DNA from: an uncultured Syntrophomonadaceae bacterium
Lineage (GTDB): Bacteria > Bacillota > Dethiobacteria > DTU022
Assembly (NCBI GenBank): GCA_964464625.1
Contig: CAYXKD010000004.1
Span: 6,966-70,965, forward strand
Reading direction: 5' to 3'
Length of the DNA: 64,000 nucleotides
In this document: piece after piece, positions 36,664 to 52,448 of the stretch
Layout of the letters: every line of letters starts with the position of its first letter
Numbering within the stretch: position 1 is the stretch's first letter
The notes under the pieces: generated by a model
Database searches by the model: none
The model's input: only the letters and a program-made list of their open reading frames with translations
Told to the model about the DNA's origin: nothing
Translations under genes and position numbers: made by a program

Positions 36664-37212
36664 TTAATAAATGGAACCCCTCATAAGGTGCCCCAGAAAT
36701 ACAATCCCCATGATAATGAGCAGGATGAGCGCCCCTTTCCAGAGCAGCCCTTTTCCGCCCCTCTCTGCGCTCCCGTAAGCGAAACGAACCTCTTCAAGCT
36801 TCCCTTTCTCCTCATGGTAGAAGAAGATGCCGCTCGTCTGAAAGAAGAGGGAGTCCAGAAGCAGTTCCCGCCGCAGCTGTGACCGGACCGGAGCGCTGTC
36901 GCCTTTAATCACCTTCACCAGGAAGCTCTCGCCGCCCCTGGAGACGATGAAATCGCCTTCATAATTGAAGCTGTTCTCTTTTCCGCCTACAATCATGGTC
37001 ACCGGCACCGATGGATGGATCTCCTCCAGCCGGTAGCCGCCTTCCTGCAGCAGATGCCAGGCCTTCTGCTCCCGGCGGGTTAGCGGCCTTACAGCCCGCC
37101 GCACCGTATTAGAGCGGCGCCGGCCCTTCCGGTTGGCAATATAGAGGGCGAGAAATGCACCGGAGAGGAGGAGCAGCCAGATATAATCCTGCCATCGCAA
37201 AGGGATCACCAC
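36664..37212 (-). CDS. Hypothetical membrane protein with a possible PD-(D/E)xK / NERD-like nuclease fold, occupying the position usually held by argR
   Basis: N- and C-terminal TM helices. Central motif GDFIVSRGGESFLVKVIKGD. No confident family assignment. Confidence 0.35.
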   Translation of the reverse strand: MVIPLRWQDYIWLLLLSGAFLALYIANRKGRRRSNTVRRAVRPLTRREQKAWHLLQEGGYRLEEIHPSVPVTMIVGGKENSFNYEGDFIVSRGGESFLVKVIKGDSAPVRSQLRRELLLDSLFFQTSGIFFYHEEKGKLEEVRFAYGSAERGGKGLLWKGALILLIIMGIVFLGHLMRGSIY

Positions 37213-37273: not shown

Positions 37274-38070
37274 TTATTTTACCAGTTCGCTGTGGGCCCT
37301 CTTCACTGCTGCAGAGATCTTTTCTTCGAGATCGGCGGGGCAGGAGCAGGCGCCGCCGCTCAACTTCAGGTGGATGAAAAATTCCAGATTGCCCCTGGGC
37401 CCGGGAAGGTGCGAGAATGTAATAGCGGCGGTGCAGTAACCTGTGCTGCAGGCGAAAGCGGTAAGGTCGTGCAGCACCGCCTTGTGCAGCCGGGGATCGC
37501 GGATTACACCCTTTCCCCTGCCGGCATCGCGGCGCCCCACCTCAAACTGGGGCTTCACCAGGGCGAGCAGCCCGGGAATGGAGCTCTCCTTCAAAACGGG
37601 CAGGACCAGCCGCAGCGAGATAAAGGAGAGGTCGATAACCGCCAGACTGGGGATTGTGGGAAGATCCTGCGGCTTTAAGTGTCGGATGTTAAAGCGCTCC
37701 ATCACCGTCACCTGCGGGTGGCGCCGCAGCGCCCAGTCAAGCTGGCCGTAACCCACGTCCAGGGCGATAATCCGGTCGGCACCGCGCTGCAGCAGGCAGT
37801 CTGTGAAGCCTCCCGTGGAGGCTCCCACATCGAGGATGGTGAGCCCCTCCACATTTATCTCCAGGTCGTCGAGCGCCCCGGCCAGTTTTATCCCGCCCCT
37901 GCTGACATAGCGCCGCTGCGGTTCCAGAAGCGTAATCCGGGCGTCGCGGGGATAGAGCATGCCCGGCTTGGAGCAAGGCCGCCCCTCAACGTGCACGCGG
38001 CCTGACATGATTTCACTGCGGGCGCGGTTGCGGCTGATCCCGGGATAGCGCTCTGTAAGCAAAATGTCGA
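37274..38070 (-). CDS. tlyA: TlyA-family rRNA 2'-O-methyltransferase (S4 domain plus FtsJ-like MTase); start uncertain
   Basis: RLDILLTERYPGISRNRARSEIMSGRVHV (S4) and LDVGASTGGFTDCLLQRGA (SAM). ORF track extends to 38437 through low-complexity sequence and into dxs, which is implausible. Confidence 0.75.
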
Positions 38071-38079
38071 GGCGCCGGC

Positions 38080-38175
38080 GGCCCCCCTCCCGCCGTTTTC
38101 CCTCCCGCTCCCGCTCACCTTCACGCTCTTGTTCCAGCTCCTGCTCCCTCTCTTCCCGCCCCCGCCCCTGCTCCC
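38080..38175. repeat. CT-rich low-complexity tract (ctcccgctcccgctcacc ... ctcctgctccctctcttcccgcccccgcccctgctccctc) between dxs and tlyA
   Basis: Seen directly in sequence. Confidence 0.8.
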
Positions 38176-38178
38176 TCT

Positions 38179-40077
38179 TCAACGCGCTCTTTCCCGCGCT
38201 CTGGCTCCGGCGCCGGTAAAAGATAGGGCCTTTCGGAAGATCCCACCGGCATCGAGACCGTAAAGTTTGAGGATAAAATCGCGCGGCCCCTGTTCGACAA
38301 AGCAGTCGTCTATGCCCAGGCGGCACACAGGCAGGGTAAGCCCATGGCGGGAAAGGAGTTCCAGCACTGCGCTCCCAAAACCGCCGGCAAGGGTATTCTC
38401 CTCCACGGTGAGCAGGCAGCCGCAGCGCTTCCCCCATTCCAGAAAAAGCTCATCGTCAAGGGGTTTGATAAAGCGGGCATTGATCACCGCAGCCTCAACC
38501 CCCTCGAGGGAAAGCCTCTCAGCAGCCTCAAGGGCTGCGCCGGCCATGGTGCCGGCGGCGGCTATGAGGATATCTTCACCCTCCCGCAGCAGTTCGCCCC
38601 TGCCCCAGGGCAGCGGCCGCGGCTCCTCAAGCACCACCCCTTCGCCTTTGCCCCGCGGGTAGCGCAGCGCCGCCGGGCCCGGGGCGCTGTAGAGCGCGGT
38701 GTAAAGCATATGCTGCAGTTCATTTTCATCGCGGGGGGCCATGACCGCCATCTTTGGAATGGTGCGCAGGTAAGAGAGGTCAAAGGTCCCCTGGTGCGTT
38801 TCACCATCCTCGCCCACAATGCCGGCGCGGTCCACGGCAAAGACAACAGGCAGATCCTGCAGGCAGACATCGTGTATGAGCTGGTCATAGGCCCGCTGGA
38901 GAAAGGTGGAGTAAATGGCAACAACGGGCTTCAATCCGCCGGCAGCCATGGCGGCGGCCAAACCGGCGGCATGCTGCTCGGCAATACCGACGTCGTAAAA
39001 GCGGCGGGGGTACTTTTCTGCAAAGCTGCTCAGCCCGGTGCCGCCCGCCATCGCCGCCGTCAGCGCCACGATCTTTGAATCCCCTGCAGCCAGTTTTAAC
39101 AGTGTCTTGCCGAAAACCTCGGTATAGGTGGGGCTTGACTTTTTACCGTGGGGTAAACCGTTCTCCCTGTCAAAGGGGCCGATGCCGTGAAAACGCTCCG
39201 GCGCCGCCTCGGCGTAGCGGTAGCCCTTTCCTTTCTCGGTGAGAACATGCACCAGCACCGGGCCTTTCATCCGCGATGCCTGCAATAGGGTGTTTTTCAG
39301 AACGGCGATATTGTGGCCGTCAACGGGTCCAAAATATGTAAGCCCCAGCTCTTCGAAGATCATCCCCGGAGCGATGATATATTTAACTCCCCCCCGGAGC
39401 CTCTCGGCAGAATGGACCATCCTTTTGCCGATAACAGGAAGCCACCCCACCACCTGTTCAAATTCAGCTTTCAGGCGGGAGTATTTCGGGTCGGAGCGGA
39501 TTTTTCCCAGATATGCCGACATGGCCCCCACATTGGAGCTGATGGACATCTTATTGTCATTCAGGACAACGATAAGATCGGTCTTCACATGGCCGGCATG
39601 GTCCAGGGCTTCATAAGCCATGCCCCCGGTAAAAGCACCGTCTCCGATGACGGCGATGACCTTATTTTTAGCGCCGAAGAAATCGCGGGCCAGGGCCAGG
39701 CCCAGGGCGGCGGAGATGGAGGTGGAGCTGTGTCCTGTTCCATAGGGATCGTGCTCGCTCTCCGAGGGCTTGGGAAAACCGCTGAGCCCCTGGTAGCGGC
39801 GCAAAGTGGGGAAGCGATCCCAGCGCCCGGTAAGAAGTTTATGCGGGTAGCTCTGGTGCCCCACATCCCAGATGATCTGGTCGCCCGGGCTCTGGAAAGT
39901 GCTGTGCAGAGCCAGGGCAAGCTCCACCACACCCAGGCTTGGAGCAAGGTGCCCTCCATTGTCAGAGACAATCCGGATCATATAGTTTCTTATTTCCGAG
40001 GCCAGCTCTTTCAGCTCAGCATTCCCCAGTTTTTTTAGATCTTCGGGAAGCTTGAACCTGCCGGACCATTCTTTCAT
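38179..40077 (-). CDS. dxs: 1-deoxy-D-xylulose-5-phosphate synthase
   Basis: Full-length DXS homology with TPP-binding motifs. Confidence 0.95.
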   Translation of the reverse strand: MKEWSGRFKLPEDLKKLGNAELKELASEIRNYMIRIVSDNGGHLAPSLGVVELALALHSTFQSPGDQIIWDVGHQSYPHKLLTGRWDRFPTLRRYQGLSGFPKPSESEHDPYGTGHSSTSISAALGLALARDFFGAKNKVIAVIGDGAFTGGMAYEALDHAGHVKTDLIVVLNDNKMSISSNVGAMSAYLGKIRSDPKYSRLKAEFEQVVGWLPVIGKRMVHSAERLRGGVKYIIAPGMIFEELGLTYFGPVDGHNIAVLKNTLLQASRMKGPVLVHVLTEKGKGYRYAEAAPERFHGIGPFDRENGLPHGKKSSPTYTEVFGKTLLKLAAGDSKIVALTAAMAGGTGLSSFAEKYPRRFYDVGIAEQHAAGLAAAMAAGGLKPVVAIYSTFLQRAYDQLIHDVCLQDLPVVFAVDRAGIVGEDGETHQGTFDLSYLRTIPKMAVMAPRDENELQHMLYTALYSAPGPAALRYPRGKGEGVVLEEPRPLPWGRGELLREGEDILIAAAGTMAGAALEAAERLSLEGVEAAVINARFIKPLDDELFLEWGKRCGCLLTVEENTLAGGFGSAVLELLSRHGLTLPVCRLGIDDCFVEQGPRDFILKLYGLDAGGIFRKALSFTGAGARARERAR

Positions 40078-40088
40078 CCACTGTCACC

Positions 40089-40685
40089 TCATCTGGTTTT
40101 TCGTAAAAGGAGCCTGTCCCGCATGCTTTCCAGCCTCGTTAAGGTTTCCCCGACAAAAGTAATAATTTCGGTTGAGCGGTTGATAGCCACATTCTTGCCC
40201 CAGGCTTTCCCCCCCACAGTCAGCGCCGCCACCAGCGCAGTCAATAATATCCCGCCGTAGATCTCCGCCGGTTCATAAAGATCCGTAATGGTTAGCTGCG
40301 AGATAATCACCGCCGCCAGCGTTCCGCTGACAATACCGCTGATATCACCGATAACATCATTGCAGAAACTGGCCACCTGATCAGCATGCTGGACCAGCTC
40401 CACGGCCCGCCGGGCGCCGTATACCTTACGGGAGGCCCTGGCATTGAAATGAGCCTGGTCCGCGGCGGCGGCGGCAGTGCCGATTATGTCAAAGACTACC
40501 CCGAGGGCAATAACGGCACAGAGCACCAGAAAAGAAAGTATCAGCGAATAGACTGCATCAAGCAGCAACCGCGTTACGATACCGATAAGCACCGCCAGGA
40601 TAAAAGACCAGATGGTGATTCCTGCTATCCAGCGCCCGGAGGGGCTGCTGCGTTTGCCTTTAGCCAACTCATCACCAGTTCGCAC
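40089..40685 (-). CDS. oapA: OapA-like OLE-associated integral membrane protein (4 TM)
   Basis: About 200-aa polytopic membrane protein immediately downstream of the OLE-like RNA locus and upstream of dxs, the canonical OLE/oapA arrangement. Confidence 0.55.
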   Translation of the reverse strand: MRTGDELAKGKRSSPSGRWIAGITIWSFILAVLIGIVTRLLLDAVYSLILSFLVLCAVIALGVVFDIIGTAAAAADQAHFNARASRKVYGARRAVELVQHADQVASFCNDVIGDISGIVSGTLAAVIISQLTITDLYEPAEIYGGILLTALVAALTVGGKAWGKNVAINRSTEIITFVGETLTRLESMRDRLLLRKTR

Positions 40686-40776
40686 CGGCTCTGCCGTGAG
40701 CCCGCTGCGTTATTTCAGGTTAATCATCTTGCCGCCCGGATATACTCCGGCTGCCGGGCGCTCCCCGGATAAACTG

Positions 40777-41349
40777 TAAAAAAAACATAAGTGGTAGCAG
40801 GCCAGATAAACGTTGCGGCTTAGGTCCAGCAGGTTTTCCCGAACAATCGCCCTCCGTCACCGGCAAGGCAGTTCCCTTTTCAGATTATTCCCGCCATGTC
40901 ACCAATGGCAGAGCTGGATTGCCACTTAGCTCACACTGTAATCCCTGACTTGCCTCTCTTGCGAGAACAGTCTAGAAGATTTCCTCCCTGGCTCCTGACC
41001 TCTCCTAGCCTCTTTTGCAGTGTGGGTTTCAGGAAATTTCTCCTCCCCCCGCCCACACCACTCAAGGCAGGCTACACTGCACCCAGCTTTCACCGCATGC
41101 AGGTTCATTCCCAAGCAGTAACCGTAGCCGTCAGGCATCCGGCCACCATCATTGGGTCTCCGCGAAGGCAGGGTCAACGCCTACATGCCTTTGTAGATCG
41201 CCCCGTCCTTCTTAACTCCCAGCACCGACCCCCAACTGGGCGTCGGCAGCCGGCACCAGGAACTTCATCGATGTGCCCTCAACGGATTTTTAGGCCCGTT
41301 TTCGAAGAGGGGGAGCCAACTAGAATACTGCACCACTTATGCCTCTTGT
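40777..41349 (-). ncRNA. ole: Candidate OLE (ornate large extremophilic) RNA, about 575 nt
   Basis: About 760-bp region with no credible ORF. Strong promoter TTGAGA-17-TGcTATAAT (complement 41356-41384). The 5' end (gcataagtggtg) pairs with the 3' end (ctaccacttatg), which is followed by a run of eight U. Sits between ispA/folD and oapA-dxs. Confidence 0.6.
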
Positions 41350-41355
41350 TGAAAA

Positions 41356-41384
41356 ATTATAGCACAACCCTTTTCCTTTCTCAA
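41356..41384 (-). promoter_or_regulatory. Sigma-A-type promoter (TTGAGA, 17-nt spacer, extended -10 TGCTATAAT) driving the OLE-like RNA
   Basis: Minus strand reads cTTGAGAaaggaaaagggttgTGCTATAATt. Confidence 0.65.
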
Positions 41385-41444
41385 GACGGCTGGAGCACCG
41401 CTGTACTCCCTGTTCCCATCCTGAAAGCCCTGGAAGCGGAGAAA

Positions 41445-42821
41445 TTAAATCACCAGGCCCTCATTGAGATGATTGCAGTTTGTAGCTATGGCATTCATGG
41501 CCGCCGCATTTATGGGATAGGCGATGGGCGACGGCGAGACCAGGGGATGCGTTGCCGTCTGGAATGTATTGAGCTCCGTTGCGGTGATATCTTTTAGTAT
41601 GGCCAGGCTTAAAATGTTGATGATCTCGGCAACGGTATTCCCGCCGGAAATCTGCGCGCCCAGGATGATCCCGGAGCATCTTGAAAAGATCATCTTGATC
41701 TTGACTTCCTGGGCATCGGGCAGGGAGCCGGGGTGGCGGTCCATGGTCTTGAACTCGCCGACCATAAGGCAGTACCCCTCCTGCTTCGCCCTGGCCTCCG
41801 TCAGGCCGGCCGCCGCAAAGGTTTTACCGAATATCTTCGTGGAAAAGGTGCTGATGGTACCTTTGTTGGCGCGGATTAGCCTTAGCTGGAAGGCATTGCT
41901 GCCCGCTATCTTCGCCTCCATCGCCGCCGTTGAAGCCAGGAGCAGCGGCACATCTTTCCCTGTAAAGAAACATTTCTTCTCGGCGCAGTCGCCCACGGCG
42001 AATATATCGGGATCGCTTGTTCTCATATACTGATCAACCACGATGGCGCCCTTGGCATTCATCTCCAGGCCGCAATCCCTCCCCAGCGCTCCATGGGGCT
42101 TCATGCCCAACCCCAGGATGACCATGTCGGCGGGAATGATCCGGCCGTCCTCCAGTTCGAGGGCCTCTACAGATTTTTCGCCCACTATTCTTTTGACCTT
42201 TGTTTTTGTCATCACCTCAATGCCGCGCCCGCTCATCTGCGCCTCAATGTCATCGGTGAAACTCTTGTCAAAAGCCTGCCATAGAAGGGAGTCCGCCATT
42301 TCGACCAGCATAACATTCTTCTCCAGCAACCTGATCTGCTCTGCAAATTCAACGCCGATAAAGCCGCCCCCGATAACGGCAACATTCCGGGCAGATTCCA
42401 GATTATCGAAAATCTTCTGCAGGTAAACTTCATCTTTCGTTATGGGATAGACATTCTCCAGATCGTAACCGGGAATAAATGTGGGGATAATGGGCAGAGA
42501 ACCGGTAGCCAGAACCAGCTTTTTATAGCTAAAAACTCCATTGTCCCTGGTGGTTACGGTCTTCTGCTCCCTCTCTATTTCAAGTGCGCTGTCGATAACA
42601 ATATTCACATCGGCATTGGTGAGCATGGCATCGGGAATAACATTTTTCTTCAGATCGCGCAGTGTCCCGAAGATATAGGGTATTCCACAGGGCACCATTA
42701 CTGTTTCGGTTTCACGGATCAGGGTGATATCGATGAGATCACCGTACGCCTTCCGCGCCATCGTAGCGGTCAGGATCCCGCCCGCGCTTCCTCCAATCAC
42801 CAGCAGATCTGTTTTTTTCAT
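41445..42821 (-). CDS. FAD-dependent pyridine nucleotide-disulfide oxidoreductase (NADH oxidase / CoA-disulfide reductase family)
   Basis: GGSAGG FAD site, redox Cys in VPCGIPY, second Rossmann VIGGGFIG. Start MKKTDLLVIGG with RBS AGGAGGAGG. Noticeably lower GC than the flanks. Confidence 0.8.
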   Translation of the reverse strand: MKKTDLLVIGGSAGGILTATMARKAYGDLIDITLIRETETVMVPCGIPYIFGTLRDLKKNVIPDAMLTNADVNIVIDSALEIEREQKTVTTRDNGVFSYKKLVLATGSLPIIPTFIPGYDLENVYPITKDEVYLQKIFDNLESARNVAVIGGGFIGVEFAEQIRLLEKNVMLVEMADSLLWQAFDKSFTDDIEAQMSGRGIEVMTKTKVKRIVGEKSVEALELEDGRIIPADMVILGLGMKPHGALGRDCGLEMNAKGAIVVDQYMRTSDPDIFAVGDCAEKKCFFTGKDVPLLLASTAAMEAKIAGSNAFQLRLIRANKGTISTFSTKIFGKTFAAAGLTEARAKQEGYCLMVGEFKTMDRHPGSLPDAQEVKIKMIFSRCSGIILGAQISGGNTVAEIINILSLAILKDITATELNTFQTATHPLVSPSPIAYPINAAAMNAIATNCNHLNEGLVI

Positions 42822-42863
42822 TTTCCTCCTCCTTGGATAATGTTCCAGGTTGAATATACTCAA

Positions 42864-42990
42864 TTATACTTCAACACCTTTAACCGGGCAACCGCCACCA
42901 AACTTGGTAAACCGGTGCCAGGCACCGGTTTACTAAAATAGCTAAGTGAACTGGTGCCTGGCACCGGTTCACCTGGGCTCAGGCTCAAGA
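42864..42990. repeat. Left copy of an approximately 130-bp direct repeat (ttatacttcaacacYtttaacMgggcaaccgcc plus two palindromic units plus ggctcaag) flanking the AT-rich exporter gene
   Basis: Aligns with 44136-44275. Contains palindrome units D1 (42907-42933) and D2 (42946-42972). Confidence 0.85.
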
Positions 42991-44034
42991 AGCCAGATCA
43001 AATTCAATGATTAGCTGTTCCAGTTTCTCATTTATGCGTAGCGCTTCAGAATATACATTGTAGAATTCAAAAATACATTCACGATTATCTGCCTTGATGA
43101 GTTCCATGATCTTTTCTCGCATCTTTTCTCTATCGATACATCCCTTAACTTTTTGATACTCCTCGTTTAGAGCGATGTTGTTGTAGATATGCTTATGTAC
43201 AGTTAACAGGTATCTTAGATATCCATGTAAATCCTGACGTATCTCATGATATTGGGGACCTTCAGGCATAAAAATGATACTTCTGTGTAAAGCTGTCAGC
43301 CGTTCAAGGTTTGATTGAATGGCATTAATGGAGCGCCGGTATTTTTTTAAAAACAGCTTCTTTTTGGACCGGTTGTCCCTGGTCAGGAAGACATCGTCCA
43401 TCAAAAGGGAAAATATATCTCGGACATCATCCAATTCATCCCTGATCATTTGTCTTTTGTTTTTAATGATATCTTTTTCTACGTTTTTATCCCTCAAAAT
43501 ATCACTGATCACGCTGCTGTACAGGCACTCAAACTTTATGCGCAGTTCATTGATTTTGCTCTTCAGGTCTTCTGTATAATCAGGGGGCAAAAATACAATA
43601 TTTAGACCCGTGGAAACAGTCAGACCGATTAAAATTCCTGAAACGCGATAAACGATCTGCATAACATCAAAACTGCTAATGGTTCCAAGGGCTACCAGGG
43701 TTACCAGGGCAAACCTGATGCTCTCATTCAATTTTAGTTGTAAGCATATCAGGATAATGGCTATACTGCCCAGCCCAAGATAAAAAGCATTCAGTCCCAG
43801 AGTCAAGGCCAGTACAAATGCTATGATAGCGCCAATAAAGGTGGCGATTATTCTATTTCTGAAAGTCTGCAGGCTTCCCTTAATGGAGGGTTGCATCGAT
43901 ATTATCGCTGTTATAGCCGCTATCCCGGCAATATTGTAGCTTTCCGCACCAATCTTCGCTTCCAAAAGATTAACCAATAAAACTGTTAAAGTAACCACCA
44001 AACCTGTTTTAACTGTCCGGGCTCCAATTTTCAT
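42985..44034 (-). CDS. Aromatic acid exporter (ArAE/FUSC, YgaE/YqjA-like) family membrane protein, AT-rich, probably horizontally acquired
   Basis: MKIGARTVKTGLVV... N-terminus typical of Bacillus YgaE-like proteins. GC about 38-40% against about 63% surroundings. Confidence 0.75.
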   Translation of the reverse strand: MKIGARTVKTGLVVTLTVLLVNLLEAKIGAESYNIAGIAAITAIISMQPSIKGSLQTFRNRIIATFIGAIIAFVLALTLGLNAFYLGLGSIAIILICLQLKLNESIRFALVTLVALGTISSFDVMQIVYRVSGILIGLTVSTGLNIVFLPPDYTEDLKSKINELRIKFECLYSSVISDILRDKNVEKDIIKNKRQMIRDELDDVRDIFSLLMDDVFLTRDNRSKKKLFLKKYRRSINAIQSNLERLTALHRSIIFMPEGPQYHEIRQDLHGYLRYLLTVHKHIYNNIALNEEYQKVKGCIDREKMREKIMELIKADNRECIFEFYNVYSEALRINEKLEQLIIEFDLAS

Positions 44035-44348: not shown

Positions 44349-44392
44349 ATTAGTAAACTTGGTGCCTGGCACCGAGTTTACCGGGTTTACTA
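44349..44392. repeat. Palindromic repeat copy F (agtaaacttggtgcctggcaccgagtttac plus an extra gtttac), overlapping the folD stop codon
   Basis: Seen directly in sequence. Confidence 0.85.
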
Positions 44393-45247
44393 ATTTTGTT
44401 GCATTTCGCAGGCCATGACGGTGTGCTTGCAGAGTACGATGGTGGTAACGGAGCCCACTCCGCCGGGAACGGGGGTGATTTTTTCGACCAGCGGCTCCAC
44501 CGCGGCAAAGTCCACATCGCCGCAGTATTTGCCGGGATTGTCGGGATCGGCGTTGATGCCCACATCAACGACGATCTGCCCCGCTTTGACGTAGCTGCTG
44601 CCGATCATCTTGGCCCGCCCGATGGCGGCTACAAGGATATCGGCCTCGGCGCAGACCTTGTCCAGGTTCTCAGTGCGCGAATGGCAGATGGTGATGGTGG
44701 CATGCTCACGCATGAGCAGCATGGCCACAGGTTTGCCCACAACAAGGGAGCGGCCCACCACGGTGACCTTTTTCCCCTTCAGCGGGATATCGTAGAATTT
44801 CAGCATCTCCATGCAGGCGGTGGGGGTGCAGGGGGGGAAGCCTGTCACATCATCGGCAAAAACCTTCCCCGCGCTGCCCAGGGTCATGCAGTCCACATCC
44901 TTCTCCACAGGAATGAGCTGGCGGATCTTCTTCTCGTCCAGATGCTTCGGCAGCGGGGCAAACATGAGGATGCCGTGGATGGAGCTGTCGGCGCCCACAT
45001 CAGTAACCGCTTTTTCCAGCTGCTCCTGGCCAATATCCTCGGGGTGCTCAAAGATCTCAAAAGCAAGCCCGACCCCTTCACTGGTCTTCTTGATGCCGCC
45101 CTCGTAGAAAAGATCATCGGGGTTGGCACCCACACGGATAATCCCGATCTTGGGAGTAACCCCTTTTGCTTTCAGGGCCTCCACCCTTTTTACAAGATCT
45201 TCCTTCATGGCATCGACTACCGGTTTTCCTCTCAATCTTTCAGCCAT
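44390..45247 (-). CDS. folD: Bifunctional methylenetetrahydrofolate dehydrogenase/cyclohydrolase
   Basis: Full-length FolD homology. Confidence 0.95.
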
Positions 45248-46027: not shown

Positions 46028-46951
46028 CTATTTGTATCTAAAGACGAGGCGGTGGGCCAGTTCACGCAGCAGATCCGCCCGCTGCTCCAGGGCATCCAGA
46101 GAGGCCAGCGCTTCGCGGTAAAGCTCTTCAGCACGCCGCCGCGCCGCTTCAGCGCCCAGCAGAGCCGGAAAGGTGGCCTTTTCACGGGCCCGGTCCGCAC
46201 CTGTCTCCTTGCCCATGAGGGCGGCGTCACCTTCCATATCGAGCAGGTCATCGGTGATCTGGAAAGCCCGCCCCAGGCAGGAGCTGTAACGGCCAAGAGC
46301 CTTCATCTGCACAGGCGAGGCTCCCGCAGCGATGGCACCGCAGCGCACCGCCGCCTGCAGCAGGGCGCCTGTCTTCAGGCTGTCTATCCGTTCAAGCTCT
46401 GCCGGCTCCATCTTTTTCCCCTCAGACTCAAGATCCAAAACCTGTCCCGCAACCATCCCCTCCGCCCCGGCGGCCCCGGCCAGCTCCAGCCCGATCTTCA
46501 GTGCAGGCTCAGAGCGGCCCTTCTCCAGACCGTACGAGGCAATAAGTTCAAAAGCAAGGGTCAACAGCGCATCTCCGGCCAAAATGGCCATAGCTTCACC
46601 GAAAACCCGGTGGCAGGTGGGCCTGCCTCTGCGCAGATCGCTGTCATCCATGGCCGGAAGGTCGTCATGGATGAGTGAATAAGTATGAATGAGTTCCAGG
46701 GCCAAAGCCACGGGCAGCACCTTCTCACCGGGAAAGCCCAGCGTCTCCGCTGCAGCCATGGCCAGCAGCGGGCGCAGCCTCTTGCCTCCTGCGGTGACGC
46801 TGTGAAACATTGCCTCCCGCAGGCGGGCAGGCTTTCCCGGCTGCTCTAAAAGTTCGACCAGGGCTTTCTCCACCGCTTTGCGCTGCCGCTCCAGGTAAGA
46901 CCCCGGATCAGAAATCTCCACCGGCACCGCCAGCGGTTTCGCCGGGTTCAC
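46028..46951 (-). CDS. ispA: Farnesyl diphosphate synthase (polyprenyl synthetase)
   Basis: FARM (LIHDDLPAMDDSDLRRG) and SARM (FQITDDLLD) motifs. GTG start overlapping the xseB end; ORF track over-extends to 47107. Confidence 0.85.
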   Translation of the reverse strand: MNPAKPLAVPVEISDPGSYLERQRKAVEKALVELLEQPGKPARLREAMFHSVTAGGKRLRPLLAMAAAETLGFPGEKVLPVALALELIHTYSLIHDDLPAMDDSDLRRGRPTCHRVFGEAMAILAGDALLTLAFELIASYGLEKGRSEPALKIGLELAGAAGAEGMVAGQVLDLESEGKKMEPAELERIDSLKTGALLQAAVRCGAIAAGASPVQMKALGRYSSCLGRAFQITDDLLDMEGDAALMGKETGADRAREKATFPALLGAEAARRRAEELYREALASLDALEQRADLLRELAHRLVFRYK

Positions 46952-47189
46952 CGGGCTCTCCGCCGCCCTCCCCCTCCGCCTCCTGCTCCTCCTTGAGAAG
47001 GTATTCCACCTGAAATTCGATTTCAGCCAGTTTTTCACGACAGTAGCGGGAAAGGCGCACTCCCTCCTTGAAACCTGCCAGCGCCTCCTCCAGGGGTATA
47101 TCCTCATTTTCCAGACGCGCCACGATCTCCTCGAGGCGCTTCATGGCCTCTTCATAAGAGAGATTTTCTTCTTTTTCTTCAGGGGACAA
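46908..47189 (-). CDS. xseB: Exodeoxyribonuclease VII small subunit
   Basis: XseB coiled-coil homology (LSYEEAMKRLEEIVARLE). Confidence 0.9.
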   Translation of the reverse strand: MSPEEKEENLSYEEAMKRLEEIVARLENEDIPLEEALAGFKEGVRLSRYCREKLAEIEFQVEYLLKEEQEAEGEGGGEPGEPGETAGGAGGDF

Positions 47190-48411
47190 GTTCAGGACCC
47201 TCCTCCAACTCTTCAGTGCGGCAGCGGGCGCTGCCGTTGCGGAAACGCAGCTGCAGGCGCTGTCCCACCTGCAACTCTTTTATGGATCGAATTACATTGC
47301 CCTTATCATCCTGGCAGTAGCTGTAGCCCCGGGCCATCAATTTCAAGGGACTGGACCCTTCAAGCTTATCCCCCAGCACCGCCAGTTGCAACCCTTTCAA
47401 CTCCAGGTAGCGCAGTATGGAGCGGCGCATCCTTTCATCAAGGGAGGCGCGGCGCTCCCCCGCTCTTTGCACCCTTTCCAGGGGGCGGCGGTAAAAACGG
47501 GCCGTCATCGTATAATCGAGCAGCTGCTTTTCCTGCAGCAGCCGCTGCTGCAGCGCCAGCGCACTTCTCTCCTCCAACCCCCTGATCTGCCTGAGCAGCT
47601 CATCGTAACGCGGCAGCGCAGCCGCCGCAGCGGCTGTAGGGGTGGCAGCCCGCAAATCGGAGACAAAGTCGGCAATGGTAAAGTCAGTTTCATGGCCCAC
47701 GGCGGAGATAACGGGCAGGCGGGAGCTGAAAATCGCCCGGGCCACCTTCTCGGTATTGAAAGGAAGCAGATCCTCCAGGGAACCGCCGCCGCGGGCGATA
47801 ATGATGAGCTCCACGCCCGCCATGCTGTTCAGCCGCTCAATGGCGCGGGCAATATCATCGGGGGCGCCGCTACCCTGCATCAGGCTTTCCGCAACGATGA
47901 TCCGGACATAGGGAAAACGCTGCCTCACCGTTGTGAGGATATCCTGCAGCGCCGCCCCGGTGGGCGAGGTGATGAGTGCAATACAGCGCGGCAGTTTGGG
48001 CAGCGGCTGCTTGTGCCCGTCGCGAAAAAGCCCTTCCTCTTCAAGTTTCTTCTTAAGCTGTTCAAAAGCCAGGTAGAGTGAGCCCATTCCCGCCGGCTCC
48101 ATCTCTGTCACATATAACTGGTAGGCGCCGCCGGGCTCGTACACGGAGACGCTGCCGGATATGAGAAGTTCCATCCCATCAGCAGGCTGAAAGAGGCAGC
48201 GCTGATTTTCACGTCGGAAAAAGACGCAGCGCAGCGAGGCGGAGCTGTCCTTGACGGTAAAGTACATGTGCCCTGAGCGATGGTGAGTGAAATTGGAAAG
48301 CTCCCCCGCCACCCAGATGTCGCGGAGGCGGGGGTCGCCCTGGATCAGCCCTTTGATGATCCGGTTAATTTCCGATACCGTATATACGGGAGTGCCATTC
48401 TGCATTTTCAA
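47179..48411 (-). CDS. xseA: Exodeoxyribonuclease VII large subunit
   Basis: OB-fold N-terminus and catalytic domain homology. Confidence 0.9.
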   Translation of the reverse strand: MKMQNGTPVYTVSEINRIIKGLIQGDPRLRDIWVAGELSNFTHHRSGHMYFTVKDSSASLRCVFFRRENQRCLFQPADGMELLISGSVSVYEPGGAYQLYVTEMEPAGMGSLYLAFEQLKKKLEEEGLFRDGHKQPLPKLPRCIALITSPTGAALQDILTTVRQRFPYVRIIVAESLMQGSGAPDDIARAIERLNSMAGVELIIIARGGGSLEDLLPFNTEKVARAIFSSRLPVISAVGHETDFTIADFVSDLRAATPTAAAAAALPRYDELLRQIRGLEERSALALQQRLLQEKQLLDYTMTARFYRRPLERVQRAGERRASLDERMRRSILRYLELKGLQLAVLGDKLEGSSPLKLMARGYSYCQDDKGNVIRSIKELQVGQRLQLRFRNGSARCRTEELEEGPELVP

Positions 48412-48453: not shown

Positions 48454-50466
48454 TCACCGCCCCTCTGTCAGCCGGAGGATCTCCTCCTGAAGATCCTGAA
48501 AGGTTTTATGCTCTACCGAACCGCCCATGACCCCGGAGAGGGCGGCGATAACGTGCCAATCGGGCCAGATATCGCCTGCGGCGCCCGGTGCGGCGAGATT
48601 CTGCCGCAGCTCTCCGGCGCTGTTTGTAAAAGATCCCTCTTTCAGGTGGAGCGGTGTTGCCGGGAAGACCACGTTCGCCTCCGGCGGGACAGCATCCTTT
48701 GAATTGCAGAGCACCACCAGAAATTCCAGGCCCGGGGGCGGCGGCGCGGCCATTCCATCCAGCACCGCTAAAAGAGCTCTGATCTCACCCTTTTCCACCG
48801 CGGCCACAATCTGCTCCTTATTGAATCCCGCCTTGCCGTTCAAAGGTAGGGATCCGGGCAACAGGTCCGGCGCTCCCCCGGCTTCGAGGATGCCGCGGGC
48901 ATTGCCCTCTTCAGCGAGGAAGAGGATGCCGCTCCGTCCCCGTTCAAGCTGCCCGGCAGCCTGTGCCGCCTCCAAAAACGGATTGATCCAGATGCTGCCT
49001 GCCATCTTGAAAAAGGAGGGGCAGACAATAATAACATTATGACCACGCCCCAGGAGCTGTGCGGCTTTAAGCAGGTCCTCCTCCCTGAGGCCTGTCAATC
49101 TGATAAGATCTGCTGCCTTTTCACCCTGCGTCAGGGCGGTCAGAGCCCGGAAAAGGTCCCCTTCCGTCCCCTCCCGGGGCTGCAGCACCAGCCTGTCCCA
49201 TGCATCCAGCTCTCTCCCCGCCGGGTTCACCTGTATCAGCACAGTGCCGCCCAGGCGGCAGGCCTGCTCCACAGCCATCGCTGCAACAGGGTTGGTGGCG
49301 GCAAGATCTTTGCCCAGGACAAGGATGGCGCCGGCCTTTTTCAGATCCTCAAAGGAAGGGCCGGAAATACCCGGGCCGGTAATGTCCCGGAGAGCGCAGA
49401 GCGCCTCAGCCAGATGGGGATCCACTCCCAGGTCCACATGAGCCGTTTCCATGCTCTCGCGAGCCAGTTTCTGCAGAAGATAGCTCTCTTCATTGCTGCA
49501 GCGCCCGCCGGCGATGACCGCCAGGGCGTCGGGGTTTCTTCTCTTCTTTATATCCAGAAAGGTCTGGCCCGCCACCTGCAAAGCCTCTTCGTAACGGGCT
49601 TCCCTTAATCCGCCTTCATCGCGGATCAGCGGCGTCATGAGGCGCTCATTATCCGCACCGGCGGCCTTGTTGAATTTCCCTTTCTGGCAGAGCCAGCCGC
49701 TCTCCTCCGTTCCCGTCACCCGGGCCAGTTTTTCTCCGGCAAAGTGGCGGTTAACAGGACAGCCCAGCGAGCATTCAAGGCAGACCCCGCTAAAAGGATG
49801 AAGCTCCCACTCCCGTCCGGCGGCGGTGCGATCCCTTTCCGTAAGGGCGCCCACGGGGCAGACATCAACACACTGCCCGCAGAATATGCAGCCCGCCTCC
49901 TCGAGAGTGACAGCTTCACCCGCGCTATAGGGGGTGATCCGGCTCTCAATACCGCCGCTGAGCAGCCCGAAGACATTGCGGCCGGCATAGTCACGGCAGA
50001 CCCTGAGGCAGCGCCCGCAGAGGATGCATTTGGACTCGTCACGAACAATATAAGGATTATCGTCACTGGTCACAGGGAGCGCCCGGAGCAGCTCCGGCAG
50101 CTCCACCTGCCAGTTATAGGTTCTCTCCTGCAGGTCGCAGGCTCCGCTCTTTTCGCAGGTGAGGCAATCAACATAGGGATGGTCTGAAAGCATGAGGGAG
50201 ATGATCTCTTTGCGCATCTCCTCAAGCCTGGGAGTGCTCGTCGTTACAACCATGCCCTCCTGGACCTCATTGTCGCAGGAGGTCACCGGCGCCGCCACAC
50301 CCTCCACATCCACGATACAGAGCCGGCAGTGGCCCAGCGGCCTTAACCGGGGGTGGTAGCAGAGCGCAGGTATTTCAATGCCACTTTTGCGGGCCGCCTC
50401 CAGTATGGTTGTCCCGGCGGCGGCATGAATGCGCTTACCATCAATGGTTAATGAAACAACTTTCAT
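48454..50466 (-). CDS. SfrA/NuoG-like Fe-S subunit: 2Fe-2S ferredoxin, 4Fe-4S clusters and molybdopterin-oxidoreductase-like domain lacking an obvious Mo-ligand Cys
   Basis: N-terminal CxxC...C 2Fe-2S, two ferredoxin CxxCxxCxxxCP motifs, then an Fdh-alpha-like domain. Confidence 0.65.
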   Translation of the reverse strand: MKVVSLTIDGKRIHAAAGTTILEAARKSGIEIPALCYHPRLRPLGHCRLCIVDVEGVAAPVTSCDNEVQEGMVVTTSTPRLEEMRKEIISLMLSDHPYVDCLTCEKSGACDLQERTYNWQVELPELLRALPVTSDDNPYIVRDESKCILCGRCLRVCRDYAGRNVFGLLSGGIESRITPYSAGEAVTLEEAGCIFCGQCVDVCPVGALTERDRTAAGREWELHPFSGVCLECSLGCPVNRHFAGEKLARVTGTEESGWLCQKGKFNKAAGADNERLMTPLIRDEGGLREARYEEALQVAGQTFLDIKKRRNPDALAVIAGGRCSNEESYLLQKLARESMETAHVDLGVDPHLAEALCALRDITGPGISGPSFEDLKKAGAILVLGKDLAATNPVAAMAVEQACRLGGTVLIQVNPAGRELDAWDRLVLQPREGTEGDLFRALTALTQGEKAADLIRLTGLREEDLLKAAQLLGRGHNVIIVCPSFFKMAGSIWINPFLEAAQAAGQLERGRSGILFLAEEGNARGILEAGGAPDLLPGSLPLNGKAGFNKEQIVAAVEKGEIRALLAVLDGMAAPPPPGLEFLVVLCNSKDAVPPEANVVFPATPLHLKEGSFTNSAGELRQNLAAPGAAGDIWPDWHVIAALSGVMGGSVEHKTFQDLQEEILRLTEGR

Positions 50467-50486
50467 TTCTTATCCCCTCCTCCCGG

Positions 50487-52448
50487 TTATATTACAGCCA
50501 GACCCAGGCGCAGGCAGCTGGCGCAGCGCCCCGCTTCACGCAGCGCTACAGGCGGCCCGTCAAAACCCAGTTCCGCTTCGGAAAATCCTTTTATTCTTTC
50601 AGCAACAGGTGCGCAGGCTTCATGCTCCCGAGGCAGGTTGCCGATAAGCGGCGGCTTCTCGGCAGGATTGTACACACCTGTCTTTTCCACAAAATTCTCC
50701 ATGGCCAGCTGCTGCGAGACAGCCACTTCCCCTCTGCTCAGGTAGCTGTCAAGGGCCTCCACAGCCTTGTTGGCCGAGGCTATGGCCTCGATAACGGTGC
50801 GGGCGCCGAGCACTGTGTCGCCTGCGGCAAAGACGCCGGGCGCCGTTGTGGCCATGGTCAGCGGATCGGCGGCGATAACGCCGCGCTCCGTAAGCTCCAC
50901 GCCGCTGTCAGCGGTCAGGAAACTGAGGTCGGCCACCTGGCCGATGGCCGGCACGATCATATCCACATCGAGAATGAATTCCGATCCTTTCACCGGCACG
51001 GGACGGCGCCGGCCGCTGCTGTCCGGTTCGCCCAGCTCCATGCGGATGCATTCCATGCCCACAACGCGGCCCTCTTCGGCGAGAATCCGCGTGGGGTTGG
51101 CCAGCAGGTGAAATCTCACTCCCTCTTCCTCGGCGGCGACGATCTCCGCCACATTGGCGGGCATCTCGGCGCGGGAGCGGCGGTAGACCAGGTAGACCTC
51201 TTCAATGCCCAGGCGCAGCGAGGAGCGGGCGCAGTCCATGGCCACGTTGCCCCCGCCGATGACGGCGACGCGCCTCCCCAGCTCCATCTCCTGGTGCAAG
51301 TTCACGCGGCGCAAATATTCAACCCCCGGGAAGAAGCCCCTGTACCCGGCATCTTCGCCTTCCACCCGCATGGAGGAGCTCTCGTGCAGACCTGTGGCAA
51401 TAAGTACGGCCGCATATCCGTCGCGGCGCAGCTCCTCAAAAGTGATATCCTGACCGATCCGCGTGTTCAGCCTGATCTCCACGCCCAGGGATTTGACCAG
51501 GTCGATTTCACCGTTCAGGATGTCCCGCGGCAGCCGGTAACTGGGAATGCCCACCGCCAGCATCCCGCCGGCCACGGGCAGGGCCTCAAAAATCGTGACG
51601 CGGTAACCCTTGCGGGCCAGCTGGTAAGCGGCGTTCAGTCCCGCCGGGCCCGCTCCGATCACGGCCACTTTTTTGGCGTCAGGAGCGACTATTACCGCCG
51701 GATCAAGGGGGATACCGCTATTTTTCACCTCAAAATCGGCCACAAATCTTTTCAATACCCGGATGGATACAGCATCGTCAAGAGGCCGGCGGCGGCAGTT
51801 GTCCTCGCAGGGATGCACGCAGACCCTGCCCAGCACCCCCACCAGGGGTGTTTTTTCGCGAATAACAGCGAGAGATTCTTCGTAAAACCCGCCGCTGATC
51901 ATCCCCACGTACAGGGGAATATCCACATGAGCAGGACAGCCGTTCCGGCAGGGGGCCGTTAAGAGGGAGCGGTAGATAAGACCATTGTCTGCCGCCCTTT
52001 CCGGTGAGCCCAGGAGGGCTTCAAAGTCGCTGCGAAAATGTTCAAGAGCATGGAGCAGGGGTACCGGTGCAGACTGGCCCAGTTCGCAAAGCGAGCTCTC
52101 CTTGACCATCCGCCCCAGGCGCTCCAGCACAATGAGATCAACCTCAGTCCCCTTCCCCCCGGCCAGTTTCTCCAGATGATTGTAGATCACGCGTGTGCCG
52201 ACCCGGCAAGGTACGCAGCGGCCGCATGATTCCTGCTGCACCACTTTGAAATACTGCCGCAAGGCCTCCACAATATTAACCTGCGGATCAATGAGCACCA
52301 GTCCCGCCCAACCCAGAAAGGCTTTCAGCGGCGCACCCTCCAATTCCGCAGGCAGTTTCAGTTCAGCCAGATCCAGCCGCTCAGCGGGATCTTTTTCTCG
52401 TTCGTCAATTATCTCATTTTTCCAGCTGCTGAATAAAATTTTAGCCAT
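50487..52448 (-). CDS. SfrB/GltD-like NAD(P)H-binding subunit (NuoF-like 4Fe-4S N-terminus fused to a glutamate-synthase-small-subunit-like FAD/NAD(P) oxidoreductase)
   Basis: CGRCVPCRVG NuoF-type motif, two ferredoxin Cys clusters, two Rossmann GxGxxG motifs. Confidence 0.65.
   Translation of the reverse strand: MAKILFSSWKNEIIDEREKDPAERLDLAELKLPAELEGAPLKAFLGWAGLVLIDPQVNIVEALRQYFKVVQQESCGRCVPCRVGTRVIYNHLEKLAGGKGTEVDLIVLERLGRMVKESSLCELGQSAPVPLLHALEHFRSDFEALLGSPERAADNGLIYRSLLTAPCRNGCPAHVDIPLYVGMISGGFYEESLAVIREKTPLVGVLGRVCVHPCEDNCRRRPLDDAVSIRVLKRFVADFEVKNSGIPLDPAVIVAPDAKKVAVIGAGPAGLNAAYQLARKGYRVTIFEALPVAGGMLAVGIPSYRLPRDILNGEIDLVKSLGVEIRLNTRIGQDITFEELRRDGYAAVLIATGLHESSSMRVEGEDAGYRGFFPGVEYLRRVNLHQEMELGRRVAVIGGGNVAMDCARSSLRLGIEEVYLVYRRSRAEMPANVAEIVAAEEEGVRFHLLANPTRILAEEGRVVGMECIRMELGEPDSSGRRRPVPVKGSEFILDVDMIVPAIGQVADLSFLTADSGVELTERGVIAADPLTMATTAPGVFAAGDTVLGARTVIEAIASANKAVEALDSYLSRGEVAVSQQLAMENFVEKTGVYNPAEKPPLIGNLPREHEACAPVAERIKGFSEAELGFDGPPVALREAGRCASCLRLGLAVI

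Follow-up and report, generated by a model that had tools for sequence, protein, structure and literature searches.

An OLE RNA gene between a flavoprotein gene and oapA

We investigated a 64,000-nucleotide (nt) stretch of DNA from an uncultured Syntrophomonadaceae bacterium (GenBank assembly GCA_964464625.1, contig CAYXKD010000004.1), hereafter the window, and focused on a 759-bp interval between two minus-strand open reading frames (ORFs) of 198 and 472 amino acids (aa). This interval is almost certainly the gene of an OLE (ornate, large, extremophilic) RNA, followed by the gene for OapA, the membrane partner of this RNA. The core features of the locus are as follows.

40686..41444: ole interval (759 bp), flanked by two minus-strand ORFs, of 198 aa (40089..40685) and 472 aa (41445..42863).
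41352..40775, minus strand: OLE RNA gene (Rfam RF01071), 578 nt as matched, full-length type with a short P9 arm.
40089..40685, minus strand: oapA, 198 aa; four hydrophobic segments, basic loop (residues 77-109), DxxxD motif (D110-D114; 40358..40344).

A sequence-only reading of this DNA had proposed an OLE-like RNA here and suggested comparing the minus strand with RF01071. This comparison, made by scanning the whole window against Rfam 15 with cmscan, gave 470.2 bits against a gathering score of 50 (E = 7.3e-135) and covered the full model (positions 1-616 of 616). OLE RNAs are marked by many near-invariant nucleotides, at about 25% of positions; here the upper-case consensus positions, which are the highly conserved ones, were identical in 222 of 245 cases (90.6%). 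The minimum free energy (MFE) of the RNA was -252.8 kcal/mol, corresponding to z = -6.66 relative to dinucleotide shuffles, and the helix that closes its 5' and 3' ends was part of the MFE structure. We found no evidence contradicting the identification. A permissive Rfam scan (E <= 0.05) and a tRNA scan recovered no other RNA family in the 64 kb.

The RNA and oapA are members of an already known class, in which the RNA is structured and about 600 nt long, as the sequence-only reading had recognized for the class: the family's own Rfam model recovers the copy in the window, and its catalogued members number in the thousands, with 2,822 representatives in GTDB R214 (PMC11332333) and 8,585 non-redundant sequences in GenBank (PMC12286853). 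Each correctly annotated copy is of some value, because few large bacterial RNAs still lack an assigned biochemical role and OLE is one of them. The window carries Bacillota sporulation genes, and the closest named OapA relatives are from Dethiobacteria or Bacillota metagenome-assembled genomes; judged by this gene content, the host is a spore-forming member of the Bacillota, the phylum in which OLE RNAs are characteristic of anaerobic or extremophilic species.

The downstream gene encodes OapA

The gene directly downstream of the RNA had been described as encoding a protein of about 200 aa with four transmembrane segments and taken to be OapA. This assignment was corroborated by the sequence of the protein and by its genomic context. 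Hydropathy analysis revealed a double-length hydrophobic stretch at residues 16-76, corresponding to two helices, followed by stretches at 110-131 and 139-160, with a basic loop at 77-109 that includes R82, R85, K86, R91 and R92. Four transmembrane helices and a basic cluster are thus predicted, from hydropathy alone, and four hydrophobic segments with a basic loop have been described for OapA (PMC12265935). The motif FCNDVIGD did not vary among 22 aligned homologues, and it includes both aspartates of D110-V-I-G-D114; the DxxxD motif is the feature that sets OapA apart from CNNM domains (PMC11332333). The similarity to the Pfam CNNM/DUF21 family (PF01595) reached 19.5 bits (E = 8e-4), under the gathering score of 28.4, and several OapA homologues carry a precomputed PF01595 match. 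NCBIfam held no model for the 198-aa protein, and a PDB sequence search with it returned no match at E <= 1.

A large protein collection contained 2861 OapA homologues. Using the homologue alignment, we fetched 80 oapA loci from one-genome-per-species contigs and scanned 20 diverse ones with Rfam. A full-length OLE (419-558 bits) was found directly upstream of the protein gene, on the same strand, in all 20. Between the OLE end and the protein start lay 7-300 nt, and in 17 of these loci 15-160 nt, compared with 89 nt in the window. The scanned loci include those of the cultured Bacillaceae Aeribacillus pallidus, Lentibacillus halodurans and Halalkalibacter lacteus, and the ole-adjacent protein of H. 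lacteus shares 43% identity with that of the window (E = 4e-44). The DxxxD motif, the hydropathy profile, the CNNM similarity, the upstream OLE in 20 of 20 loci and the identity to the H. lacteus protein together identify the 198-aa protein as OapA.

Two of the OLE-oapA loci came from records titled as lying outside the Bacillota, namely 'uncultured Desulfovibrionaceae' (L012) and 'Pseudomonas sp. ISL-84' (L029). Both records are probably mislabelled or contaminated; non-Bacillota occurrences of OLE have been reported to look like assembly or transfer artefacts (PMC11332333).

The ole gene has its own promoter and a covarying closing helix

The features that delimit the transcript are listed below.

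41356..41384, minus strand: ole promoter of the sigma-70/SigA type; -35 element TTGAGA at 41384..41379, 17-nt spacer, extended -10 element TGCTATAAT at 41364..41356 (TGnTATAAT, with TATAAT at 41361..41356).
41331..41347, minus strand: 5' strand of stem P1; core CATAAGTGGT at 41341..41332, with a purine-rich leader AAGAGG able to pair with the 3' U-run.
40786..40797, minus strand: 3' strand of P1; ACCACTTATG at 40795..40786.
40785..40778, minus strand: run of eight U (U8) directly 3' of the P1 3' strand; judged from its position, the likely 3' end of the RNA.

The near-consensus minus-strand promoter noted in the initial reading was recovered both by reading the sequence and by a promoter scan: it agrees with the consensus at 11 of 12 positions and in addition has the TG extension. 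Between 40000 and 41700, the scan reported four promoter-like sites where 1.1 were expected, and the ole promoter was the only strong one. Its extended -10 element ends about 5 nt upstream of the 578-nt OLE match, and the predicted transcription start falls at ~41351..41347. In 18 of 21 OLE loci, a TGnTAnnnT extended -10 element was located 25-45 nt upstream of the invariant GCAGUAU; an own promoter is therefore a trait of the family, to which the window conforms. A proximal promoter of the B. halodurans OLE was experimentally shown to boost expression more than 100-fold (PMC3413148). The scan found no promoter-like site between OLE and oapA, and transcription of oapA-dxs must therefore depend on read-through.

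The sequence-only reading had also pointed to a helix joining the two ends of the transcript. The helix is real, with coordinates differing by about 1 nt from those first proposed, and it is stem P1 of the published OLE model. CATAAGTGGT is exactly complementary to ACCACTTATG. We cut the 5' and 3' ends from 21 OLE sequences, aligned them and counted covariation: P1 was 82% paired, and both sides had changed in 11 of 13 pairs. None of 500 shuffles performed as well, and sliding the partner strand by 1-3 columns reduced pairing to 30-58%. In B. halodurans, OLE 5' ends were mapped to the start of P1 (PMC3413148).

The proposal that P1 forms part of an intrinsic terminator fared less uniformly. 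The 3' strand ACCACTTATG is followed by U8 as had been stated, but a terminator scan of 40000..41700 found no classic local hairpin terminator, so that what stands is a long-range P1 helix plus a U-run. A U-rich tail directly after P1 was also present in the six closest relatives (L001, L002, L003, L008, L012 and L014), whereas the Bacillaceae lack it. Some other species, for example those of loci L019, L027 and L041, carry a conventional hairpin terminator a few dozen bases past OLE.

The 89-nt spacer between OLE and oapA (40686..40774, minus strand) contains two short GC-rich hairpins, CCGGG-GAGCG-CCCGG and CCGGA-GTATA-TCCGG, and an element resembling CCGGG..CCCGG also occurs in L002. We looked for conserved structure in the spacer (40774..40686) and rejected it: the consensus fold of four relatives reached just -2.2 kcal/mol, with no real covariation. 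A conserved ATGGTGAT, considered as a spacer RNA element, turned out to be coding sequence (R-Y-G-D).

RNA anatomy and a shortened P9 arm

The internal elements of the RNA, with P4 to P6.1 placed by the cmscan alignment, are as follows.

41281..41300, minus strand: P4 hairpin with the A-rich loop CUAAAAAU, identical to the consensus.
41216..41262, minus strand: P5/P5.1 hairpin with the loop GCCCA.
41164..41211, minus strand: P6/P6.1 hairpin with the loop CAAAGGCAUG, whose GGC is complementary to the GCC of L5.1.
41110..41156, minus strand: P7 stem-loop of normal length; the P7 region has 51 nt, against 19-53 nt in most measured loci and 283 nt in one outlier.
41077..41102, minus strand: P8 hairpin of normal length; the P8 region has 28 nt, against 28-40 nt elsewhere.
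41008..41072, minus strand: truncated P9 arm; its base, internal loops and 10-bp P9.1 are kept, and the distal ~40 nt with the GGCC loop L9.3 are replaced by a 4-6 bp hairpin at ~41046..41031.
40891..40911, minus strand: P13 hairpin; GUGA tetraloop at 40902..40899, one A bulged out at 40906; putative OapB-binding site.

In cryo-electron microscopy (cryo-EM) structures of OLE, L4 makes the A-A dimer bridge B1 (PMC12286853, PMC12265935), and L5.1 and L6.1 form an intermolecular kissing interaction (PMC12265935). The dimer-contact loops CUAAAAAU, GCCCA and AAAGGCAUG are present in the window as in the OLE consensus, and dimerization is predicted by analogy. The kink-turn for OapC is formed by the junctions GGGCACAUCGAUGAAG and UUAAG, and both match the consensus in the cmscan alignment. 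The P13 hairpin, likewise in agreement with the consensus, has both a GNRA-type loop and a 1-nt bulge, the features that the OapB site needs (PMC7936274).

The P9 arm departs from this pattern. The cmscan alignment contains a local end in P9, where 4 nt stand in for 41 model positions. To compare P9 across loci we used regular-expression anchors; this partial survey located P9 in 41 of 82 loci, including the window's own sequence (as L081). The inter-anchor length was 42 nt in the window and 39-47 nt in 11 of the 41 loci (the window counted), with no conserved palindrome; all 11 are the window and its nearest relatives. In the other 30 loci the anchors are 75-95 nt apart, and 29 of these loci show a GGCC-type palindrome at the apex. 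In the cryo-EM dimer, this L9.3 GGCC palindrome is the kissing loop of bridge B3 (PMC12286853). The short arm folds, and within the clade its P9.1 and terminal hairpin show compensatory changes; we therefore regard it as a maintained clade trait and not as decay. A self-complementary GAAAUUUC at the P9 tip was considered as a substitute kissing loop. It is not conserved, the loops of the relatives being GACAAAA, AGCAUAG, GUAAAA and UCCG, and we treated it as chance.

The Dethiobacteria-like clade to which the window belongs might carry a distinct, maintained OLE subtype, with full P7, P8 and OapB site but no P9 arch or L9.3, with P1 doubling as a terminator stem and with long-range folding setting the read-through to oapA-dxs; we consider this possible but unlikely. 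If it were true, either bridges B1 and B2 alone would hold the RNA dimer together, or the function of the arch would be dispensable. The short P9 amounts to a natural deletion of one cryo-EM dimer bridge and could guide construct design. The short P9 and the combination of P1 with U8 may interest those who study OLE structure, but both are minor departures within a familiar family, and the short P9 leaves the knowledge of the class unchanged.

Weighing alternative explanations

The interval had been described as lacking a credible ORF, and as one that default pipelines would leave unannotated. Two ORFs do exist mechanically, one of 233 aa on the plus strand (40896..41597) and one of 83 aa on the minus strand (40926..41177), and either could in principle make the interval protein-coding. 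We consider this reading close to untenable. The Pfam scan assigned no family to either ORF, and the 233-aa ORF is antisense to the 470-bit structured-RNA match and runs over the 3' end of the 472-aa oxidoreductase gene. Moreover, conservation across species tracks RNA pairing and not codons, and the gap was left without a gene call on the identical public metagenome contig MTBK01164014.1, which carries the same OapA sequence. For annotation, it follows that the 759-bp 'empty' interval is an RNA gene, that the 233-aa ORF is not to be called, and that the 198-aa 'hypothetical protein' is OapA. That the locus preserves only a decaying OLE without function is also highly improbable. Erosion could be read from the missing distal P9, with 41 model positions gone and the GGCC loop of bridge B3 absent. 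The remainder of the RNA, however, fits the model end to end with 90.6% of the conserved positions intact, and the promoter and an intact oapA are conserved; no oapA frameshifts were seen in related genomes. The short P9 is common to at least 10 related loci, where P9.1 and the terminal hairpin vary in a compensatory manner. Three observations weigh on the functional inferences and not on the identification. One is the missing P9 kissing loop, a conserved dimer contact; a long P9 with a palindromic L9.3 is characteristic of OLE, and its absence is not disqualifying, as natural variants with shorter P9 arms have been published (PMC11332333). Another is that no OapB- or OapC-like domain was detected among the ~50 window ORFs scanned with Pfam or NCBIfam, in a survey that included no systematic small-ORF search and left most ORFs under ~130 aa unscanned; oapB and oapC were expected not to turn up in 64 kb, because they usually lie elsewhere in the genome. 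The third concerns the terminator role of P1 and U8, since a 'loop' of 540 nt is unusual for an intrinsic terminator.

Two explanations compete for how the 3' end is formed. Inspection of the sequence suggests U8 as the likely 3' end: it may belong to an intrinsic terminator that depends on the long-range P1 helix, or it may prolong P1. We infer that P1 and U8 form a putative leaky, folding-dependent terminator. A less likely but plausible alternative is that U8 merely extends P1 by A-U and G-U pairing with the AAGAGG leader, the mature RNA being cut by ribonucleases (RNases) from a longer ole-oapA-dxs or upstream operon transcript. Such an extension agrees with the Rfam consensus, in which GUGGUG is preceded by an A-run and CACCAC followed by a U-run, and with the MFE fold, in which the U-run pairs with the leader. 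The missing hairpin terminator in the scan points the same way, as does the lack of an own promoter for oapA, which makes substantial read-through necessary. In addition, some of the OLE of H. halodurans is transcribed together with the adjacent genes (PMC3413148, PMC9723947), and RNase excision from longer transcripts has been proposed for part of its pool. On the other hand, a G+C-rich 10-bp helix directly before eight U is the signature of an intrinsic terminator, and the U-rich tail is specific to the clade; the local hairpin terminator of the species of L019, L027 and L041 suggests that the same job is done differently there.

Comparison with known OLE systems

The RNA of the window resembles full-length OLE (RF01071; H. 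halodurans, C. acetobutylicum and C. botulinum) in its end-to-end model fit, P1, the A-rich L4 loop, L5.1/L6.1, the normal length of P7 and P8, and the GUGA tetraloop and bulge of P13. It also shares with full-length OLE its own proximal promoter, oapA directly downstream followed by dxs, and a spore-forming Bacillota host. Unlike full-length OLE, it lacks the distal ~40 nt of P9 and the palindromic L9.3 (bridge B3), it has U8 directly after P1 in place of a separate terminator, and four genes, one of them of low G+C, separate its ispA from ole. Variants 1 and 2 of OLE have been described from the TANB77 and RF39 clades (Fernando and Breaker 2024, PMC11332333). With variant 1 the RNA of the window has a single feature in common, the shortened P9 arm; variant 1 also has a short P7 and P8 and has often lost the OapB site, whereas P7, P8 and the OapB site are intact in the window. 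Variant 2 lacks P7 and P8 entirely (PMC11332333), whereas the window retains both. The RNA thus sits between 'full-length' and 'variant 1' OLE.

The protein likewise matches the OapA family (H. halodurans BH2780 / WP_010898928.1) in its length of about 200 aa, four hydrophobic helices, basic loop, DxxxD motif, weak CNNM/DUF21 similarity and position directly after ole. It differs from the OapA of Bacillaceae in being just ~43% identical to a Bacillaceae representative, and although OapA is characterized by cooperative binding of OLE RNA and its recruitment to the membrane, RNA binding by the protein of the window is putative. The sub-threshold PF01595 match (19.5 bits) indicates a distant relationship with MpfA/CorB CNNM-domain Mg2+ transporters; unlike these, the OapA of the window has no CBS or CorC domains and has the DxxxD motif that CNNM domains lack. 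OapA also has four transmembrane helices rather than the three of CNNM domains (PMC11332333).

Proposed mechanism

Published work provides the stability of the H. halodurans OLE and its ethanol and cold phenotypes (PMC3413148), the dimer with its bridges and a membrane model from cryo-EM (PMC12265935, PMC12286853), and the relation of OapA to MpfA/CNNM together with its DxxxD motif (PMC11332333). By analogy with the H. halodurans work and the Clostridium cryo-EM structures, the OLE RNA of the window would be abundant and stable and would dimerize via L4 and L5.1/L6.1. A dimer of the four-helix, CNNM-like OapA may anchor it at the cell membrane, where, with OapB and OapC, it would form a ribonucleoprotein aiding tolerance of alcohol, cold, excess Mg2+ and poor carbon sources. 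According to a published hypothesis, OLE RNA may provide a CNNM-type, ion-handling protein of the membrane with its sensing or regulatory part, in place of the CBS and CorC domains of MpfA; extending it to the window by analogy, we modestly favour this possibility. Two steps would be particular to this locus and its clade. U8 after P1 may stop most transcripts, with read-through providing the oapA-dxs mRNA and so setting an excess of RNA over protein, and the short P9 would leave the clade's dimer without bridge B3. These mechanistic steps are less certain than the identification of OLE and oapA.

Gene neighbourhood

In the direction of transcription, the minus strand carries efp, spoIIIAA-AH, Asp23-family genes, two large oxidoreductases, xseA, xseB, ispA, a cyclodeaminase gene (FTCD_C), folD, a gene for an ArAE-family exporter, a CoA-disulfide-reductase/NADH-oxidase-like flavoprotein gene (42863..41445), OLE, oapA, dxs, tlyA, a 182-aa gene, a gene for NAD kinase, recN and a gene for a sigma-54 activator; beyond the latter, spo0A and spoIVB lie on the plus strand. 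Genes referred to below are the following.

38179..40077, minus strand: dxs (1-deoxy-D-xylulose-5-phosphate synthase), Pfam DXP_synthase_N E = 1e-117; the usual gene after oapA.
45247..44390, minus strand: folD.
46028..47107, minus strand: longest ispA ORF; the likely gene is ~46900..46028.
47189..46908, minus strand: xseB, 93 aa, TTG start.
48411..47179, minus strand: xseA.

The order downstream of OLE, a membrane protein of 198 aa and then dxs, is the one initially described. The placement of ispA upstream was correct only loosely: it lies on the same strand, but it is not adjacent, being separated from OLE by about 4.7 kb and four genes (FTCD_C cyclodeaminase, folD, ArAE-family exporter and pyridine-nucleotide-disulfide oxidoreductase). 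Apart from the distant ispA, the neighbourhood, with its isoprenoid, folate, DNA-repair and sporulation genes, is the usual setting of ole (PMC12265935). The xseB gene overlaps the first ~70 codons of the longest ispA ORF, and the FPP-synthase match begins at residue 73; the real ispA start therefore lies downstream of xseB.

The ArAE/FUSC-family exporter gene between folD and OLE (42985..44034, minus strand) has a G+C content of 36-42%, whereas the window averages 57.6%. The gene resembles an insertion gained by horizontal transfer, one that contributed to the distance of ispA and folD from ole. The pyridine-nucleotide-disulfide oxidoreductase gene directly upstream of the ole promoter (41445..42863, minus strand) is not a usual neighbour of ole. 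Its best NCBIfam matches were CoA-disulfide reductase and NADH oxidase, all far under their cutoffs, and the same oxidoreductase-ole arrangement occurs on the public contig MTBK01164014.1.

On the other side of dxs, a TlyA-like ORF (37274..38437, minus strand; S4 and FtsJ domains) reaches 259 nt into the dxs 3' end, and its domains begin at residue 121. The first ~120 residues include the Glu/Arg-rich low-complexity stretch REEREQELEQEREGEREREGKRREGGRRR, and the gene was called at 306 aa on the identical public contig. Translation of tlyA probably begins close to the stop codon of dxs; the Glu/Arg-rich part is an atypical N-terminal tail or else repeat DNA that does not code for protein. Between tlyA and the gene for NAD kinase lies an ORF of 182 aa (36664..37212, minus strand) that is hydrophobic at both its N- and C-terminus and was matched by neither Pfam nor NCBIfam. 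Its position is roughly that of argR in Bacillus clusters, and no argR was seen between dxs and recN.

Further upstream, two large redox genes are inserted between the Asp23/TsaD-like genes and xseA (48454..52448, minus strand). One encodes a 670-aa protein resembling NuoG, [FeFe]-hydrogenase and formate dehydrogenase, and the other a protein of 653 aa, an NAD(P)H oxidoreductase similar to GltD in which one segment resembles NuoF; together, they may form an electron-bifurcating or formate/H2-linked module.

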